Virus record (IMG/VR): IMGVR_UViG_2690316243_000011
Reading direction: 5' to 3' (one strand)
From: a virus
Lineage: Duplodnaviria > Heunggongvirae > Uroviricota > Caudoviricetes
DNA length: 8,759 nucleotides
A program made the translations under genes and the position numbers. Positions 1 to 8,759 of this stretch are shown here, piece after piece (positions within the stretch are counted from its first letter, which is position 1; every line of letters starts with the position of its first letter). The notes under the pieces are model-generated. The model was given only the letters and a program-made list of their open reading frames with translations. It did no database searches and had not been told where the DNA came from.

Positions 1-31
1 TGGTAGTGTCCGCTATTGCCAGTACACCTCA
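1..31. repeat. Left arm of a perfect 31-bp terminal inverted repeat (partner 8729-8759)
   Basis: tggtagtgtccgctattgccagtacacctca at 1-31 is the exact reverse complement of 8729-8759; identity ends at base 32 (g versus t). Checked base by base. Confidence 0.95.
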
Positions 32-1540: not shown

Positions 1541-1554
1541 AGGGAAAATAAGTG

Positions 1555-1631
1555 TGGCGCGTTGTACTGGATTCGAACCAGTGACCGATTGCTTAGAAGG
1601 CAATTGCTCTGTCCGGCTGAGCTAACAACGC
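1555..1631 (-). tRNA. argO: tRNA-Arg (anticodon UCU), copy A, 77 nt, CCA encoded
   Basis: Reverse complement folds as a cloverleaf: acceptor GCGTTGT/ACAACGC, D-stem GCTC/GAGC, anticodon stem ATTGC/GCAAT with loop CTTCTAA, T-stem ACTGG/CCAGT with loop TTCGAAT, discriminator G, CCA. Symbol assigned only by analogy with the ileZ-argN-argO cluster of Stx phages (from memory). Confidence 0.85.
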
Positions 1632-1641
1632 TGAATACCGA

Positions 1642-1662
1642 NNNNNNNNNNNNNNNNNNNNN
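1642..1662. other. Assembly gap (21 N)
   Basis: Run of n at 1642-1662; the flanking sequences on the two sides differ, so the true distance and linkage are unknown. Confidence 0.95.
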
Positions 1663-1706
1663 TTTCAGTATAAGGCTCTGCCGGAAGGAATCTGGAAGAA
1701 TGAATA

Positions 1707-1783
1707 TGGCGCGCTGTACTGGATTCGAACCAGTGACCGATTGCTTAGAAGGCAATTGCTCTGTCCGGCTGAGCTAACAACGC
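1707..1783 (-). tRNA. argO: tRNA-Arg (anticodon UCU), copy B, 77 nt, CCA encoded
   Basis: Identical to copy A except one base in the 3' acceptor strand (ACAGCGC versus ACAACGC), which gives a G-U pair. Its upstream flank differs from that of copy A. Confidence 0.85.
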
Positions 1784-1796
1784 ATGATGCAGATAA

Positions 1797-1873
1797 TGGA
1801 CCGCCATCGGGGACTTGAACCCCGCGCAGCCAGCTTCGAAGGCTGGCGCTCTTTCCTGATGAGCTAATGGCGG
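1797..1873 (-). tRNA. argN: tRNA-Arg (anticodon UCG), 77 nt, CCA encoded
   Basis: Cloverleaf: acceptor CCGCCAT/ATGGCGG, D-stem GCTC/GAGC, anticodon stem CCAGC/GCTGG with loop CTTCGAA, T-stem CGGGG/CCCCG with loop TTCAAGT, discriminator T, CCA. The 5' base is C, which is unusual but paired. Confidence 0.8.
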
Positions 1874-1880
1874 TATGTGA

Positions 1881-1956
1881 TGGTGGCCCTTGCTGGATTT
1901 GAACCAGCGACCTGGCGATTATGAGTCGCTCGCTCTCACCACTGAGCTAAAGGGCC
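1881..1956 (-). tRNA. ileZ: tRNA with CAU anticodon, Ile2 (lysidine)-type by similarity to E. coli ileX; a tRNA scanner would probably call it Met
   Basis: GGCCCTTTAGCTCAGTGGTGAGAGCGAGCGACTCATAATCGCCAGGTCGCTGGTTCAAATCCAGCAAGGGCCACCA: anticodon loop CTCATAA, T-loop TTCAAAT, CCA encoded. It resembles the tRNA-Ile2 sequence as I remember it. Confidence 0.85.
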
Positions 1957-1965
1957 GGGAGCCGC

Positions 1966-1994
1966 ATAATAACGACGCGTAATTAATTCTTCAA
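1966..1994 (-). promoter_or_regulatory. Candidate sigma70 promoter for the tRNA cluster
   Basis: Minus strand: TTGAAG (1994-1989), 17-bp spacer, TATTAT (1971-1966); the predicted start falls 1-3 nt before the mature 5' end of the first tRNA. The -35 sits just past the methyltransferase stop codon. Pattern match only. Confidence 0.4.
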
Positions 1995-1996
1995 TA

Positions 1997-3055
1997 TCAT
2001 CCGTTCTGGCTGACTAAATCCTGTACTTCCCGAACCGTCTGCTCAAAACGTTCAGTCTCCAGCTCAACGCCAATTGCACGACGCCCGAGCGCCAGTGCCG
2101 CTTTCACTGTCGAACCCAACCCCATGAAAAAATCTGCAATCAGGTCACCCGGACGACTGCTAGCGCTGATTATCTGCTGCAGCATTTCTGCCGGTTTTTC
2201 GCACGGATGTTTCCCGGGATAGAACTGCACCGGTTTATGCGTCCACACATCGGTATACGGCACCTGCACCGTCACGCCAAAATACCGCCGCAGATGTTTA
2301 TATTCACTCAGCAGCTCCGCATACTGCCGGTTCAGTGAGGTATACGTATCCACCAGCTGGTGGTGGAGCTTTTCCAGTTCACCACGCCGATGCTTCTCTT
2401 CTGCCACCCGGGCAAACAGCGCCTGTAATTTCAGATAATCGCTTTCATTCGGCAACTGCCACTGACCGGCACTGAACCAGTGCGACACCATGTTTTTCTT
2501 TCCTGTGGCATCTGCAATCTGTTTTGCCGTTATCCCCAGGGCAGCTCGCGCATCACGAAAGTAAGAAATCAGCGGGGCCATCACATGCTGTTTCAGTGCA
2601 CTGCCCTTCGCCGCATACCCGGCATCTTTCGGACGATACGGCCCCTGATAATGTTCCGCGAACAGAATGCGCTCTGTGGCGGGGAAATACGCCCGCAGGC
2701 TTTCCTTGTTGCATCCGTTCCAGCGTCCGGACGGCTTCGCCCAGATAATATGGTTCAGCACACTGAAGCGTTCACGCATCATGATTTCGATATCAGATGC
2801 CAGGCGATGACCACAGAACAGGTAAAGACTTCCGGCAGGTTTCAGCACCCGCCAGAACTGCGCCAGACACTGGTCCAGCCACTTCAGGTAATCATCGTCG
2901 CCCTTCCACTGGTTATCCCAGCCCTCAGGCTTCACTTTAAAGTACGGCGGGGCCGTGACTATCAGGTCAACAGAATTTTCGGGTAACGACCGGATAAATT
3001 CCAGGCAGTCGGCGTTGATTAACTCACAACTGGATATTTTTACAGTATTAAGCAT
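1997..3055 (-). CDS. DNA methyltransferase, beta-class N6-adenine/N4-cytosine family; orphan, no restriction endonuclease partner
   Basis: 352 aa. Motif IV-like DLIVTAPPYF near the N-terminus and motif I-like DFFMGLGST near the C-terminus, in the beta-class order. Motif IV reads APPY rather than the canonical D/N/S-PPY (confirmed on the DNA: acg gcc ccg ccg tac). Confidence 0.85.
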   Translation of the reverse strand: MLNTVKISSCELINADCLEFIRSLPENSVDLIVTAPPYFKVKPEGWDNQWKGDDDYLKWLDQCLAQFWRVLKPAGSLYLFCGHRLASDIEIMMRERFSVLNHIIWAKPSGRWNGCNKESLRAYFPATERILFAEHYQGPYRPKDAGYAAKGSALKQHVMAPLISYFRDARAALGITAKQIADATGKKNMVSHWFSAGQWQLPNESDYLKLQALFARVAEEKHRRGELEKLHHQLVDTYTSLNRQYAELLSEYKHLRRYFGVTVQVPYTDVWTHKPVQFYPGKHPCEKPAEMLQQIISASSRPGDLIADFFMGLGSTVKAALALGRRAIGVELETERFEQTVREVQDLVSQNG

Positions 3056-3147
3056 GGATCATTAAGCCTGTCTCTGATAGGCTCATTCTGCTTTTGCGCA
3101 AAGCAGTGGGCCTGAGGTTTGCTTGTGAACCCAACGCATGAGCAGAT

Positions 3148-3178
3148 GGCTGGTGGGTGCCCCTAACACCCACCAGCC
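3148..3178. other. Perfect 12-bp stem-loop between the small wHTH ORF and the methyltransferase start
   Basis: ggctggtgggtg (3148-3159), loop cccctaa, cacccaccagcc (3167-3178). No U-tract on either strand, so it is not a canonical intrinsic terminator. Confidence 0.7.
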
Positions 3179-3194
3179 GCCCATTTACCACAAA

Positions 3195-3219
3195 TAAAAA
3201 AGCCTTCACTGCGGAAGGC
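3195..3219 (-). terminator. Intrinsic terminator overlapping the stop of the 65-aa ORF
   Basis: Minus-strand RNA: gccuuc-cgcagu-gaaggc (6-bp stem) followed by UUUUUUAUUU (plus-strand A-run 3195-3201). Confidence 0.6.
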
Positions 3220-3403
3220 GTCTGTAACAACCGAACTGATAGTCTGCCAGACCCGCCATAACCAGCTGGGTCAGTATTAACTGGCAGCGTTCGCGTGAAA
3301 GGTAAGTATTCTGCGCTATCTCCCCGACTGTCGCCGGTTCGGTAACGCTTAATTCATTAAACACCACTCTGGCGGTTTCTGTCATATCCTGCTGTTTTAG
3401 CAT
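3206..3403 (-). CDS. Small hypothetical protein (65 aa) with a winged-helix/HTH-like segment; possible DNA-binding regulator
   Basis: ATG at 3403 with upstream AAGGAAAAG. The segment TVGEIAQNTYLSRERCQLILTQLVMAGLADY fits a helix-turn-helix pattern. It has its own terminator and lies just upstream of the methyltransferase. Confidence 0.5.
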   Translation of the reverse strand: MLKQQDMTETARVVFNELSVTEPATVGEIAQNTYLSRERCQLILTQLVMAGLADYQFGCYRRLPQ

Positions 3404-3521
3404 GTCTTTTCCTTTTCCGGTTAACGTGACACACCAATAACTCTTGTCGAAAAAGCCAGCAAGCTGAAAGACAGGTATTCACCGCCACCAGCGCGTTTAC
3501 TGTACTGACGCGATTTCAGTC

Positions 3522-3547
3522 ATAAAAAACCCGCTCGGCGGCGGGTT
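3522..3547 (-). terminator. Intrinsic terminator about 40-65 nt downstream of the Q stop codon
   Basis: Minus-strand RNA: aacccgc-cgccga-gcggguu followed by UUUUUUAUG. Confidence 0.6.
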
Positions 3548-3586
3548 GTAGAAACTCTTCTAACGTCAGGCATAAAACGCCCATCG

Positions 3587-4441
3587 TTATGACGAATTTA
3601 CCACAGATTCCGGAAAAATCAACCTAGTTACCTTTTTTAACTGCCGCTCAGCCCATGCTTCTTCAATATCAAACCGGGTCACCAGCGCATCATAAAATTT
3701 CTTAACTGTTTTTTCCCATGACGCGCGTGTTATCTGGTTTGTCACCTCGCATATAGCATTAAATGCCTCCGTTGATGGTAGTCTTTCATAGCCACGACCA
3801 CCACAACGCTGGCAGTCTCTGATAACAGGCATACCACGTTTTACCGACTCTTCACGATGAATGGCGACACCACGCCCACGGCAATCCTTACAGGCGGTGG
3901 AAACCTCACCCTTTCCGCCACACTCCGGACAGGCAACTTTTACCACCTCTCTGACTTTTTTCCATTCTTCCCAGTAAGACGGATACACACCTTTCGTACA
4001 CTTTGCCCATACCGGCGGCTTACCATCCGGATACTGGATCTTGTTTGTAAAAACCTCGCTTTCAATAAATTTTTTTCCGTGACAGCAGGGGCACTGTTTT
4101 TTGCTCGCCGCGCTACGGGCATAATCTTCAAACGCATACGAAGCCATAATACGCATCACTGCCGGTTTTATTTCTGCCGGGAGTTTTCTTAACGCCGCCA
4201 CGCGATCACACCGACTGAGTGCATATTCTGTCAGCAATTCTGTTGCCCGCTCTCTGTCATTCATACTAATGCCCATTTTCCCAAGGAACGCAGAAACCCC
4301 CATCTCAGCCCGATTCTGTGTCATGCCCTGCGCGGCCATCACATCAGTGATACTCAGCGCATCTTTCGACGTTGAGGCCGATGCATCAGTCAGGCCGGGG
4401 GATTTTGGGGAGTAGTATTTCGGTAAATCTTCCAGTTTCAT
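3587..4441 (-). CDS. Q: Late-gene antiterminator Q, Q82/QuuQ-type, with CxxCxGxG zinc-finger repeats; complete copy
   Basis: 284 aa. Motifs CPCC, CPECGGKG, CKDCRGRG and CQRCGGRGYERLPS, with a C-terminal segment WEKTVKKFYDAL resembling phage 82 Q / QuuQ as I recall them. Its ATG overlaps the stop of the upstream rusA fragment (ATGA). Position downstream of rusA is as expected for Q. Confidence 0.7.
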   Translation of the reverse strand: MKLEDLPKYYSPKSPGLTDASASTSKDALSITDVMAAQGMTQNRAEMGVSAFLGKMGISMNDRERATELLTEYALSRCDRVAALRKLPAEIKPAVMRIMASYAFEDYARSAASKKQCPCCHGKKFIESEVFTNKIQYPDGKPPVWAKCTKGVYPSYWEEWKKVREVVKVACPECGGKGEVSTACKDCRGRGVAIHREESVKRGMPVIRDCQRCGGRGYERLPSTEAFNAICEVTNQITRASWEKTVKKFYDALVTRFDIEEAWAERQLKKVTRLIFPESVVNSS

Positions 4442-4551
4442 TTTTTGACCTGCCCTTCAAGCATTATGGGATAAATCTTCACCCCCAGACGTCCACCAGA
4501 TACTGGCTGAGCACGAACGATATTGATTTCATCAAACTGCTCATCGTCCAT
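4438..4551 (-). pseudogene. Duplicated 3' fragment of rusA (37 codons)
   Basis: Translates MDDEQFDEINIVRAQPVSGGRLGVKIYPIMLEGQVKK, matching the C-terminus of the full RusA ORF with a few substitutions. It begins at the duplication junction and ends in an ATGA overlap with Q copy 1. Confidence 0.6.
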
Positions 4552-5300
4552 TANAATTTCTTAACTGTTTTTTCCCATGACGCGCGTGTTATCTGGTTTG
4601 TCACCTCGCATATAGCATTAAATGCCTCCGTTGATGGTAGTCTTTCATAGCCACGACCACCACAACGCTGGCAGTCTCTGATAACAGGCATACCACGTTT
4701 TACCGACTCTTCACGATGAATGGCGACACCACGCCCACGGCAATCCTTACAGGCGGTGGAAACCTCACCCTTTCCGCCACACTCCGGACAGGCAACTTTT
4801 ACCACCTCTCTGACTTTTTTCCATTCTTCCCAGTAAGACGGATACACACCTTTCGTACACTTTGCCCATACCGGCGGCTTACCATCCGGATACTGGACCT
4901 TGTTTGTAAAAACTACGCTTTCAATAAATTTTTCCCCATAGCAACAAGGGCACTGCTTTTTACTCGCTGCGCTGCGGGCATAATCCTCAAAAGCGTACGA
5001 AGCCATAATGCGCATCACTACCGGTTTTATTTCTGCCGGAAGTTTTCTCAACGCCGCCACACGATCGCACCGACTGAGTGCATAATCTGCCAGTAATTCT
5101 GTTGCCCGCGCCCTGTCATTCATACTGATGCCCATTTTCCCCAGGAACGCAGAAAACCCCATCTCAGCCCGATTCTGTGTCATGCCCTGCGCGGCCATCA
5201 CATCAGTGATACTCAGCGCATCTTTCGACGTTGAGGCCGATGCATCAGTCAGGCCGGGGGATTTTGGGGAGTAGTATTTCGGTAAATCTTCCAGTTTCAT
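4551..5300 (-). CDS. Q: Second copy of antiterminator Q, C-terminally truncated at the duplication junction (249 aa, last codon contains the N)
   Basis: ATG at 5300 overlaps the RusA stop (ATGA). The protein is co-linear with Q copy 1 up to ...WEKTVKK, then a TTN codon and TAA. It lacks the last ~35 residues of copy 1. Confidence 0.5.
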   Translation of the reverse strand: MKLEDLPKYYSPKSPGLTDASASTSKDALSITDVMAAQGMTQNRAEMGFSAFLGKMGISMNDRARATELLADYALSRCDRVAALRKLPAEIKPVVMRIMASYAFEDYARSAASKKQCPCCYGEKFIESVVFTNKVQYPDGKPPVWAKCTKGVYPSYWEEWKKVREVVKVACPECGGKGEVSTACKDCRGRGVAIHREESVKRGMPVIRDCQRCGGRGYERLPSTEAFNAICEVTNQITRASWEKTVKKX

Positions 5301-5677
5301 TTTTTGACCTGCTCTTCATGCATTATGGGGTAAATCTTCACCCCCAGACGTCCACCAGATACTGGCTGACCACGAACGATATTGATTTCATCAAACTGCT
5401 CATCGTCCATTAGCAACCCCGCATGCGTCAGCGCATCCAGCGGCGCTTTCAGAATATTGTCCAGGTCACGACGGCGCTTATCCGGTGGCTCTGCAATAAT
5501 CTTTATCGCCAGTCTTCCGGACAGGCTTAATTTCAGCCGCTGCTGGCGAACAATAAGCGCCACTGCCCGGCGATAACGCTCCCCGGCTTTTGATACAAAA
5601 TATGTGCTGCCACGACGACGCCAGTAAGTGTTCACCGTCGGCGGGTAAGGTAAAACAAATTCTATGCGCTCGGTCAT
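5297..5677 (-). CDS. rusA: RusA-family Holliday-junction resolvase (endodeoxyribonuclease RusA)
   Basis: 126 aa with PDKRRRDLDNILKAPLDALTHAGLLMDDEQ, matching the conserved DRRRRDLDN acidic motif region of RusA. Its start follows the upstream stop directly (TAAATG) and its stop overlaps the Q start. Confidence 0.8.
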   Translation of the reverse strand: MTERIEFVLPYPPTVNTYWRRRGSTYFVSKAGERYRRAVALIVRQQRLKLSLSGRLAIKIIAEPPDKRRRDLDNILKAPLDALTHAGLLMDDEQFDEINIVRGQPVSGGRLGVKIYPIMHEEQVKK

Positions 5678-6736
5678 TTATGCTTTCCACTTCAGAACAC
5701 CCGAATTTCTCGCGTGCATTAAAAAACGAATCAGCAACAACAGCTGACTGCCGTGTTTCTCTTCAAAATCTTTTACTCCGGCATGTAGTTCGTTACGGCA
5801 TTTACGGCATAACGGAATAACAAACAAATCATCAGCCTTTGTTCCCATCCCTCCCAGTCCATGACCAATGATGTGATGCGGATCATCTGCCTGATTGCCA
5901 CACGTCATGCATTTCTGCGTTTTTACCCAGCGCGTGTATACAGGCATCTCTTCCCGTTGTGATTTCTGGCGCTGGAGATACTGAGCCGGTGACTCCGGAT
6001 CAACGGCAATGCTGACCACCGTCTTTTCCTGTGGTGGGTTCTGTTGCTGGTGGACGTGAGGCAGTAACGCAATATTTTTTGTGCGCTGCTTCAGTATGCT
6101 GGTGGCTGTCTGCTCTCCCGGTATGATGTCGCTTTCACTGTACACAGAGCGAATTTTTTCCGCACGCAACCCCAGCGAACGACGTAATACCGCTTCCGGT
6201 AGCGCGTCCGCCACCTGATTGCGGACCGCCCACCAGGATAATTCAGCCAGAGATAATTCACGCTCCTGCGTACCGCTTATTGCGTGACCGATGACGTCAA
6301 TCATCCATGCTGACAGGTTTTGATGAGCAAGTTGCTCGAGTGATTCGGATGTCTGGTCACGCAGCTGGTTGTCGCAGTGCCAGCACAACACCATTGCGCC
6401 GGTACCATAACGGTGAATGACGGTTTCGCTGTGATGATAATCGCCGTGTGGCCACTGGCAGGATTTAATATGGCGCAACAGCCAGTCAGACAATGCACCA
6501 GCACCACCAGCAGCACGAATCACCCGTGCGTTACTGAAAAACGGCAGCAATGTTTTGTCTTCCACCAGCGGCTGGCGAGCGGCAGGAACGACCCCGGACG
6601 GCAGATTACGCATGCTTTTTGGTTCCGGCTCCACCAGTATTCTGCCGTTATGGAATGCTGACATTGATTCACGGCCTGGCTTAACGATAACCAGACCGAG
6701 TTCCGGTACCAGAACAGGTCGAAGTAATACCCGCAC
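5678..6736 (-). CDS. DUF968 / YdfU-like prophage protein with two Cys/His HNH-like motifs
   Basis: 352 aa in the frame from a GTG at 6736 (alternative ATG at 6664 would give 328 aa). Motifs CQWPHGDYHH...CWHCDNQ and CMTCGNQADDPHHIIGH...CRKCRNELH. Sits between rem-like and rusA as ydfU does in Qin (from memory). Confidence 0.6.
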   Translation of the reverse strand: MRVLLRPVLVPELGLVIVKPGRESMSAFHNGRILVEPEPKSMRNLPSGVVPAARQPLVEDKTLLPFFSNARVIRAAGGAGALSDWLLRHIKSCQWPHGDYHHSETVIHRYGTGAMVLCWHCDNQLRDQTSESLEQLAHQNLSAWMIDVIGHAISGTQERELSLAELSWWAVRNQVADALPEAVLRRSLGLRAEKIRSVYSESDIIPGEQTATSILKQRTKNIALLPHVHQQQNPPQEKTVVSIAVDPESPAQYLQRQKSQREEMPVYTRWVKTQKCMTCGNQADDPHHIIGHGLGGMGTKADDLFVIPLCRKCRNELHAGVKDFEEKHGSQLLLLIRFLMHARNSGVLKWKA

Positions 6737-6737
6737 A

Positions 6738-7016
6738 TTACCTCCAGATCCGTTGCTGGAATGTGCGGGACGGACGCGTTGGCCGTTCGGAGTAAGGGAG
6801 CCTGACGGAGATTATCCAGTGACGGTAGTCGAGGCTAAGGGCTTTTTTAACCTCGCATCCGCGCCTGCGGTAACACTGAATGAGCCATTCGGCCTGTTCT
6901 TCAGTGCATGGGGGATGCTGGTACCAATCAGATTTAAATGCGTGAGAGCGCCGCCCGTGCCTGCTGGCAAAGACGGCTGAATTATCAGAATTGTGTAGTC
7001 TGGAATTTTGCGCCAT
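6738..7016 (-). CDS. Hypothetical protein (92 aa)
   Basis: ATG at 7016 preceded by GGAG with 6-nt spacing; its stop overlaps the start region of the DUF968 gene. No family recognised. Confidence 0.45.
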   Translation of the reverse strand: MAQNSRLHNSDNSAVFASRHGRRSHAFKSDWYQHPPCTEEQAEWLIQCYRRRGCEVKKALSLDYRHWIISVRLPYSERPTRPSRTFQQRIWR

Positions 7017-7082
7017 CGGCTTTCTCCGGTGGCACAGTGTTACTCAACAGGGGTTCAGCCCTGCGCTGAATTGTAGATGAAT

Positions 7083-7346
7083 TCACTCATCTTCAAAAGC
7101 AGAAAAACCAGCCTTAATCCCAGCTTCTTTCAGAGACGGCAACGATGTGACAAATTCATTTGCACGCGAAATAAAACCATCCGTCACAAGCCCATCCACA
7201 AAATGAATTAACGCAGCTCCACTCTTCCTTTGTTGAGACTGTAAACATTTAATACGGCAGTGGCTGACAATAGCGCCATTCTCAACGCGCACAGTATAGA
7301 GGCCATCTTCACTAAAAATTTCACGTAATTCTTCGATTTTCATCAA
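7083..7346 (-). CDS. Small hypothetical protein (87 aa), Rem-like by position downstream of hok
   Basis: ATG at 7346 preceded by GGAAGGA. The Rem assignment rests only on gene order and size, not on a recognised sequence. Confidence 0.55.
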   Translation of the reverse strand: MMKIEELREIFSEDGLYTVRVENGAIVSHCRIKCLQSQQRKSGAALIHFVDGLVTDGFISRANEFVTSLPSLKEAGIKAGFSAFEDE

Positions 7347-7460
7347 CAGAATCCTTCCAGATAAATAGCACTCCCCTGTTCGGGGTCCATCCCTCTTCTC
7401 CCTGCGCGCTACTTAAGTATTTTTGATTCTATTCCGGCACCATCTAAAACTTCAAACGCG

Positions 7461-7495
7461 TTGAAAATAAAAACAAAAACCCGCCGAAGCGGGTT
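7461..7495 (-). terminator. Strong intrinsic terminator downstream of hok
   Basis: Minus-strand RNA: aacccgc-uucg-gcggguu (7-bp stem) followed by UUUGUUUUUAUUUUC. Confidence 0.75.
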
Positions 7496-7563
7496 AAGTG
7501 TGGGTGCATTGAGGATGCCTGACCCATCAGAGGTGGCGAGGGATTTCTCCCCCGCCTGGTCTC

Positions 7564-7719
7564 TTACTCCTCAGGTTCGTAAGCTGTGAAGACAGCGACC
7601 TCCGTCTGGCCGGTTCGAATTCGTACCTCGCAGAGGTCTTTCCTCGTTACCAGTGCCGTCACTATGACGGTTAAACAGATGACGATCAGGGCGATTAACA
7701 TCGCCTTTTGCTGCTTCAT
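7564..7719 (-). CDS. hokD: Hok-family membrane toxin (type I toxin), HokD/RelF-like
   Basis: Translation MKQQKAMLIALIVICLTVIVTALVTRKDLCEVRIRTGQTEVAVFTAYEPEE (51 aa) matches HokD/RelF as I remember it and is clearly Hok/Gef family. An in-frame upstream ATG at 7776 would add 19 residues (the 70-aa ORF in the track); I prefer the internal start. Confidence 0.85.
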   Translation of the reverse strand: MKQQKAMLIALIVICLTVIVTALVTRKDLCEVRIRTGQTEVAVFTAYEPEE

Positions 7720-8010
7720 AGCCTGCTTCTCCTTGCCTTTCGGCACGTAAGAGGCTAACCTAGATTTGCCGTTCATAGATTGAGCCTCAGATTAATGTTA
7801 AGCGTCTTGCCGGACGCGTAATGTTAACTGGGGCTTTTCTCTATCTGCCTTTTGGTGTTCATGCCTGAGACAGATAGCCTCAAGCACCCGCTGCAATTCT
7901 ACTTAACTCTCCTTTTCCCGCAAACCGTTTTTATCCCCAGCGGCAAATCGAATACACCACCAGCGCCACCGCCATCGCAATTCCTACCGTTGTTAATGCT
8001 TCAGGCCAGG

Positions 8011-8355
8011 TCATCGTAAAATATCCTCCACGCTTATCAGTCCGTTCCGCTCCAGATAACTCATCGCCTTATCCGGTAATTTGCAGTCTGGCTTCGCTTT
8101 CCTCAGTTGCCAGGTTAACTGCTTTACCAGCATGGTTAACTCATCGACCAGACGCTGATATCCCACTGGTTTGTATTCATGCAATTTACCGGCTGGCTCT
8201 GCTGCCAGCGATACCAGTGCGATTTCCAGAACAGCAATATCCATCTTATATGTGCGGATGATGTCATGGTCGATTGTGCCCGGTATGCACAGTCTCTGTG
8301 CTTCAATAGTCTCCTCTGCGTGAGCTATTAACTGCTCTCTGGTAAAAGTCGTCAT
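8011..8355 (-). CDS. Hypothetical protein (114 aa), paralogous in its N-terminal half to the upstream 55-aa ORF
   Basis: ATG at 8355 overlaps the stop of the upstream ORF (ATGA). Shares the N-terminus MTTFTREQL and the motif [17 protein letters not shown] with the 55-aa protein ([24 protein letters not shown]). Confidence 0.55.
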
Positions 8356-8519
8356 GCCGTAGCCCCTTCTTGATATTTTTCAAACCAGAACACAACCGGC
8401 TCTGCTTCCAGCGATGCCAGCGCAATCCGTGCCAGTTCCATTTGTTCACCACGGGTAAGCCCGTTTTCAAGCGGGTTTTTAATGAACAATTCAATACGTT
8501 CTTTGGTAATAGTGGTCAT
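8352..8519 (-). CDS. Small hypothetical protein (55 aa); not in the supplied ORF track, found by hand
   Basis: ATG at 8519-8517 preceded by GGAG with 7-nt spacing. Translation [55 protein letters not shown]; TGA stop at 8354-8352 overlaps the next ATG. Confidence 0.5.
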
Positions 8520-8529
8520 GTGTTACTCC

Positions 8530-8754
8530 TTAACCCGCAGTGCTTTCAACTGATGAGGGGAACAAAATCTTTTCATCAAACCCTGCATTCATATCATGAA
8601 CAGCAACACACCAATCCATCGACGAACGATTATCAAGAGCCTCCATGATTTCATCCATGCGGCGTAGGTCATACAGGTAAATGCTTTTATCGCCAATGGT
8701 GTAAAAGCCAATTTTTTTCGGTGATGGATGAGGTGTACTGGCAATAGCGGACAC
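8530..8754 (-). CDS. C-terminal part of a hypothetical protein; 5' end outside the window or disrupted by the terminal repeat
   Basis: Open frame from the window edge to a stop at 8530-8532. The 'M' in the track is a GTG inside the terminal inverted repeat, so the true start is probably upstream of the window. No family recognised. Confidence 0.35.
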   Translation of the reverse strand: MSAIASTPHPSPKKIGFYTIGDKSIYLYDLRRMDEIMEALDNRSSMDWCVAVHDMNAGFDEKILFPSSVESTAG

Positions 8755-8759
8755 TACCA
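8729..8759. repeat. Right arm of the 31-bp terminal inverted repeat (partner 1-31)
   Basis: Reverse complement of 8729-8759 equals 1-31 exactly. Confidence 0.95.

Follow-up and report, generated by a model that had tools for sequence, protein, structure and literature searches.

The tandem duplication of a rusA-3′/Q-5′ unit that appears in the DNA analysed here is very probably an assembly artefact, that is, a false duplication arising from scaffolding and gap filling of a short-read draft of Shigella sonnei. The whole stretch of 8,759 nucleotides, hereafter the window, is the entire draft record GCA_001258795.1 CXCY01000159.1 (Shigella sonnei); a full-text literature search found no paper mentioning the accession prefixes of this record. 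Judging from the comparison with related sequences, the true locus most likely holds one rusA and one Q, the latter in its 284-aa allele. The scaffold is best seen as a false duplication at a gap that was left open, rather than as the joining of two unrelated prophages. The hallmark of false duplications is a gap between the copies, together with divergent alleles in the copies and a single copy of the region in better assemblies (PMC9516828). In the window, each of these marks can be recognized, as detailed below.

The repeat and the genes it contains

An offset comparison reveals that positions 3693-4553 and 4552-5412 of the window are direct repeats; shifted by 859 bp, they align in perfect register and without gaps. 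The resemblance of the two rusA-3′/Q-5′ units is far above chance: they are separated by 35 substitutions and by the N at 4554, corresponding to about 95.9% identity. The substitutions are unevenly distributed, since 31 of the 35 fall within 4039-4297, where the divergence reaches 12%, and the copies are identical across 3696-4038 (343 bp) and across 4298-4453. At the junction, a dinucleotide TA is common to both repeat units. Tandem Repeats Finder, whose longest period is 500, reported no repeat, the 859-bp period being established by the offset comparison. A previous sequence-only reading had described two 858-bp units; the repeat itself stands, with its period corrected to 859 bp. The same reading counted nine amino-acid differences in Q, all in the N-terminal and middle part, and this is borne out: the Q copies differ at residues 49, 64, 71, 72, 94, 121, 123, 129 and 135, and are identical over residues 136-248.

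The coordinates of the features are collected in Table 1. On the minus strand, the genes follow each other in the order DUF968, rusA, truncated Q, N, rusA 3′ fragment and full Q. Both Q sequences are recognized by the Antiterm profile (PF03589, cut-off 26.7), with 179 bits for the full Q (Q_A) and 156 bits for the fragment (Q_B). The latter lacks the last 17 positions of the profile, its second domain matching positions 1-70 of 87. As previously noticed, the upstream Q is cut at the junction, specifically after residue 248; the downstream Q, described as complete, is a protein of 284 aa rather than of the usual 273. This 11-aa extension is due to an 8-bp deletion at 3621/3622, observed relative to all the E. 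coli loci examined, that takes out the normal stop codon of Q. The exact 284-aa protein is found in 366 contigs, named Shigella sonnei, and ten of the S. sonnei contigs used for comparison carry it in identical form. The deletion allele was not found in a scan of species-representative genomes. Judging from the contigs that carry it, the allele is real and specific to the lineage.

Table 1. Position of the repeat units, genes and scaffold breaks of the window
Feature	Position	Strand	Remarks
IS600 end	1-31		Reverse complement of 8729-8759
tRNA-Arg(TCT) on both sides of the 21-N gap	1542-1783	-	Probable second false duplication, across 1642-1662; single copy in L001 and L014
Full Q antiterminator, 284 aa	3587-4441	-	S. 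sonnei allele; Pfam PF03589 Antiterm, E = 1.8e-53
Copy A, right end of the scaffold's middle contig	3693-4553	-	Q codons 1-249 and last 116 nt of rusA
rusA 3′ fragment, 116 nt	4438-4553	-	Last 37 codons and stop; duplicate of 5297-5412
Apparent truncated Q, 249 aa, last residue X	4551-5300	-	Probably artefactual ORF closed by the join; stop TAA at 4553-4551
Single N	4554		Probable scaffold join, unsequenced junction; matches both 3695 (A/G between paralogues) and 5413 (G/A)
Copy B, left end of the right contig	4555-5412	-	Same stretch as copy A, with the alleles of a second prophage Q paralogue
rusA, 126 aa, complete	5297-5677	-	Pfam PF05866, 61.1 bits (cut-off 22.8); matching genomes annotate a RusA family protein
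DUF968	6736-5678	-	Gene order upstream of rusA
IS600 end, right terminus	8729-8759		Perfect 31-nt terminal inverted repeat with 1-31

The window contains two runs of N, namely 21 N at 1642-1662 and the single N already noticed by the earlier reading, which lies at 4554, exactly at the boundary between the copies. The first hallmark of a false duplication is thereby present. This residual single N is presumably the trace of a join made by the scaffolding software. The possibility that it represents an ambiguous base within a contiguous contig was considered and rejected, as no related sequence joins rusA at 5412 to Q at 3696 and, moreover, the second gap behaves as the same kind of overlap.

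As both termini are IS600 ends, the scaffold corresponds to an IS-bounded piece of a lambdoid prophage remnant. The 31-mer of the IS600 end is multi-copy in the sister assemblies. The left IS600 copy adjoins position 32, which falls within a DUF1737/SASA esterase gene; the S. sonnei contig L014 has this gene intact, which suggests either an isolate-specific insertion or a contig-end artefact. Other elements can be recognized in the same scaffold. Two copies of the STnc100 sRNA (Rfam, 161 and 124 bits) are located on the minus strand at 802-1011 and 1289-1478, where they form part of a diverged repeat, about 480 bp long, that lies downstream of the tRNAs; the gap-free L014 has both copies as well, so that this duplication is real. 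Upstream of DUF968, again on the minus strand, lies a hok/sok-type toxin-antitoxin system (7564-7889), identified by a Rfam sok match at 7714-7889 and by a 51-aa Hok/Gef ORF at about 7564-7719.

The locus in related genomes and the search for the junction

The comparison was based on draft sister contigs of S. sonnei and on E. coli genomes. In E. coli TOE17, the segments 2900-4553 and 4555-6200, representing the two halves of the window, align unbroken to one and the same single-copy locus, on which they overlap by 858 bp. In S. sonnei, the N-free contigs L010, L011 and L014 contain a single DUF968, a single rusA (126 aa) and a single Q (284 aa). L014 matches the window with no differences over 5514-8759 (3,246 nt) and with four differences over 1715-4553; when aligned to this contig, the two halves of the window have 861 bp in common. 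This mapping implies that, in a near-identical genome, the flanks of the window adjoin via one rusA-Q. Overall, one copy of the region is present in independent assemblies free of gaps, including L010, L011, L014, complete E. coli genomes and phage, as observed for false duplications.

The alternative to be weighed against these data is that of a genuine tandem duplication, in which an 859-bp unit would have been duplicated by illegitimate recombination at the TA microhomology and later converted by the Q allele of another prophage. The exact register of the copies and the TA at the junction are in keeping with such an event. A further feature of the copies is a T at 3950 and at its counterpart 4809, where every compared locus of E. 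coli and S. sonnei has a C; this private T, shared by both copies, is what a SNP peculiar to the strain would give if it had been drawn twice from the same reads, and a recent real duplication would fit it as well. Moreover, the Q gene of E. coli SCU-176 (2928-3749 of that locus) is B-type, that is, like copy B, up to the window equivalent of position 4161 and A-type, like copy A, from 4181, which shows that genuine recombinants of the A and B Q cores occur in complete genomes.

Against a real duplication, the base at the junction is an N, the junction is present in no other genome, phage or protein record, and the near-identical sister contigs are single copy. Neither a duplication in close relatives nor the near-identical copies expected of a recent event were found; in particular, the 12% divergence of the core is incompatible with a recent event unless a second one is added. 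The coincidence of the contig ends with SNPs between paralogues and the second gap, in which the same artefact is seen, both described below, point in the same direction. We therefore attribute to a genuine duplication hardly any probability, and the little that it retains is owed in part to the private T in both copies. The organization that it would entail, with a C-terminally truncated Q having a B-type N-terminal half directly upstream of the full 284-aa Q, is just as improbable; were it true, two Q variants would be produced from one late operon. Accordingly, the real tandem duplication that the sequence-only reading had listed as one option is not upheld, given the N at the junction, the absence of the arrangement from other records and the single copy of the sister contigs, and the variant of that proposal invoking a product of inter-prophage recombination is rejected on the same evidence.

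The search for the junction covered several collections. A 400-bp probe spanning it has matches in 2,780 of the 5,426 complete E. coli genomes; for each of the 30 best hits listed, the two pieces of the probe map, in permuted order, to opposite ends of one 861-bp unit. A shorter probe of 70 bp gave no spanning match in the 5,426 complete E. coli genomes. Nine records matched this short probe at 84% coverage and 87% identity, all inside Q. These matches were considered as candidate junctions and discarded: in RM10466, the sole one that was checked, the sequence is ordinary Q 3′ sequence reached by extension of the alignment, and the halves of the probe map in this genome with 100% identity about 820 bp apart, again in permuted order. 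The exact junction pattern is likewise absent from species-representative genomes and viral contigs, and in alignments with phage records the query is shortened by about 859 bp. At the protein level, no truncated Q ending in F or L is present among about 15 billion proteins, and the truncated Q with X as last residue occurs in one public record, which is the window itself. A sequenced novel junction from unit end to unit start, the hallmark of a real tandem duplication, is thus lacking in the window, where the base is N, and in the nucleotide and protein collections searched.

Two Q alleles and the ends of the contigs

Copy A carries the allele of L014, from which it differs only at 3695 and by the private T at 3950. 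The core of this copy (4039-4297) represents the O157/Stx2-phage type of Q, which 606 E. coli records, O157:H7 and Stx2 prophages included, match with 99% identity or more. As for copy B, many E. coli genomes contain Q genes with the very same core (4898-5156; 100% identity), and 1,170 records match it at 99% or above. Completed with its natural tail, copy B would encode exactly a very common Q protein of 273 aa. In S. sonnei, the sister scaffold L007 combines A-type Q units with a B-type Q fragment from which copy B differs at 5 positions in 847 nt, and another sister scaffold, L012, has a B-type Q beside an A-type Q. The two copies, therefore, carry alternative alleles that are present elsewhere in sister S. 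sonnei scaffolds, in agreement with the second hallmark of false duplications. At least three Q-bearing prophage remnants are found in S. sonnei assemblies and, with several such remnants per genome, both alleles are expected among the reads of one isolate.

The B alleles could also derive from a mixed culture or from contaminating Escherichia or Shigella DNA, in which case the duplication would be an artefact all the same. The B-type Q is indeed extremely common in Enterobacteriaceae, with at least 1000 contigs; on the other hand, A- and B-type Q are held together by sister S. sonnei assemblies from other projects (L007 and L012), so that a paralogue of the same genome suffices to explain the B alleles. 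Contamination is accordingly considered a very unlikely source.

A further possibility, to which we assign an appreciably greater but still low probability, is that of a chimeric scaffold, in which Q_A with the late-gene side and Q_B with rusA and DUF968 would belong to different prophage remnants, mis-joined by read pairs in their shared sequence. Neither copy B nor the SNP cluster at 5471-5513 follows the A locus, both matching the B-type paralogue of L012 (L012a), and the presence of at least three Q-bearing remnants in S. sonnei scaffolds, with L007 and L012 stringing several rusA-Q units over N gaps, makes such a join conceivable. However, L014 reproduces the right flank of the window (5514-8759) without a difference and continues from it, with no gap, into Q_A and the left flank, and the B-type paralogue of L012 has a different right flank, its alignment ending near 5669, and a RusA of 124 aa. 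Consequently, one and the same locus, probably covered twice, is favoured over two mis-joined remnants. The earlier suggestion of a scaffold that is a chimera of two prophages' Q alleles is thus retained in part: two alleles and a scaffold artefact are very probably involved, and the join of unrelated prophages is less likely, given that the flanks are contiguous in the gap-free L014. Within the right contig, A-type bases at 5413-5468 precede the B-type SNP cluster of 5471-5513; the overlapping end of this contig is either a patchwork of paralogues or a third, recombinant paralogue.

The positions at which the two contigs end are informative in this respect. The left-hand contig ends at 4553, equivalent to 5412, and the next base, 5413, is a G in the A paralogue and an A in the B paralogue. 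For the right-hand contig, which begins at 4555 (equivalent to 3696), the base just before is 3695, a G in L014 and an A in the B paralogue. As the A and B paralogues differ at about 5.8% of sites (70 of 1,211), the joint chance that both ends adjoin a site differing between paralogues is roughly 0.3%.

A false duplication at this point probably originated as follows. In the S. sonnei genome, DUF968-rusA-Q modules recur as paralogues in several lambdoid prophage remnants. A pair of contigs would both reach into the same rusA-3′/Q-5′ region, the one from the late-gene side ending at 4553 and the one from the DUF968 side starting at 4555. Extension by greedy k-mers or by majority vote, or a branch in the assembly graph, would stall at a base differing between paralogues. 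The overlapping ends would have borne different paralogue alleles, with 35 mismatches in 859 bp, and because of these differing alleles the overlap would have been missed and the ends abutted with one N. GapFiller proceeds by k-mer-overlap extension from both edges of a gap with a majority vote of 0.7, and gaps in repeats stay open (PMC3446322). The Sanger bacterial pipeline consists of Velvet, SSPACE and GapFiller, and greedy tools can yield false joins (PMC5320598). From the type of the record, we infer that this pipeline was its source, and the order of the events is likewise inferred.

The other gap of the window, made of 21 N, shows a comparable situation. A tRNA-Arg(TCT) is duplicated across it (1555-1631 and 1707-1783), so that the window has four tRNAs, while complete genomes and L014 have three (Ile2, Arg, Arg). 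The two sides of this gap overlap by 93 bp on single-copy references. Past the tRNA gene, each contig end continues with the flank of another paralogous copy, and the wrong-paralogue flank sequence is contiguous in E. coli SCU-176 (L005) and in several sister loci; the ends could not be merged because they exit into the flank of a different paralogue. Strict duplication flanking a gap was thus observed at both gaps of the window (2/2) and at none of the 16 gaps of the sister scaffolds, indicating that it is not a constant signature of the pipeline.

Sister scaffolds are also interrupted in this region. In L009, a contig breaks exactly at the window equivalent of 4038, before the first A/B SNP, and is followed by a single N; furthermore, in L007 (1-4200), L009 (5407, 9330) and L012, two to three rusA-Q units or fragments are strung over short N gaps. 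The Q paralogues are evidently a recurrent point of break and mis-join in S. sonnei drafts.

Consequences and comparison with known systems

Taken at face value, the record adds a truncated antiterminator ORF, a 37-aa RusA fragment and a fourth tRNA, all of them spurious, which could be counted as gene gains or pseudogenes in surveys of the Shigella pangenome or of prophages. More generally, a scaffold gap that falls within a paralogous prophage module should raise the suspicion of a false duplication.

A close parallel is found in the heterotype false duplications described by Ko et al. 2022 (Genome Biol 23:205, PMC9516828), in which, as in the window, two diverged forms of one sequence stand next to each other across a gap, a gene is falsely added in whole or in part and better assemblies contain a single copy. 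The difference lies in the nature of the alleles, which in the window are those of prophage paralogues in a haploid bacterium and not those of diploid haplotypes. A second parallel is provided by the repeat gaps of SSPACE and GapFiller (Boetzer & Pirovano 2012, PMC3446322; Page et al. 2016, PMC5320598), where extension from the two edges stalls at points at which the alternatives are balanced, as proposed here for the contig ends; the use of this pipeline for the record of the window is deduced.

As for the genes themselves, the order and the sequence of the window match, at 92-97%, the lambdoid module DUF968-rusA-Q-(methylase)-ileZ/argN/argO of Stx phages and E. coli prophages, in which Q alleles are natural mosaics. 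Every reference examined has one rusA, one Q and three tRNAs, whereas the window has 1.3 rusA, 1.9 Q and four tRNAs, a discrepancy that is accounted for by the two gap artefacts only. The duplication, then, holds no new biology, and the module underlying it is one of ordinary lambdoid late regulation.
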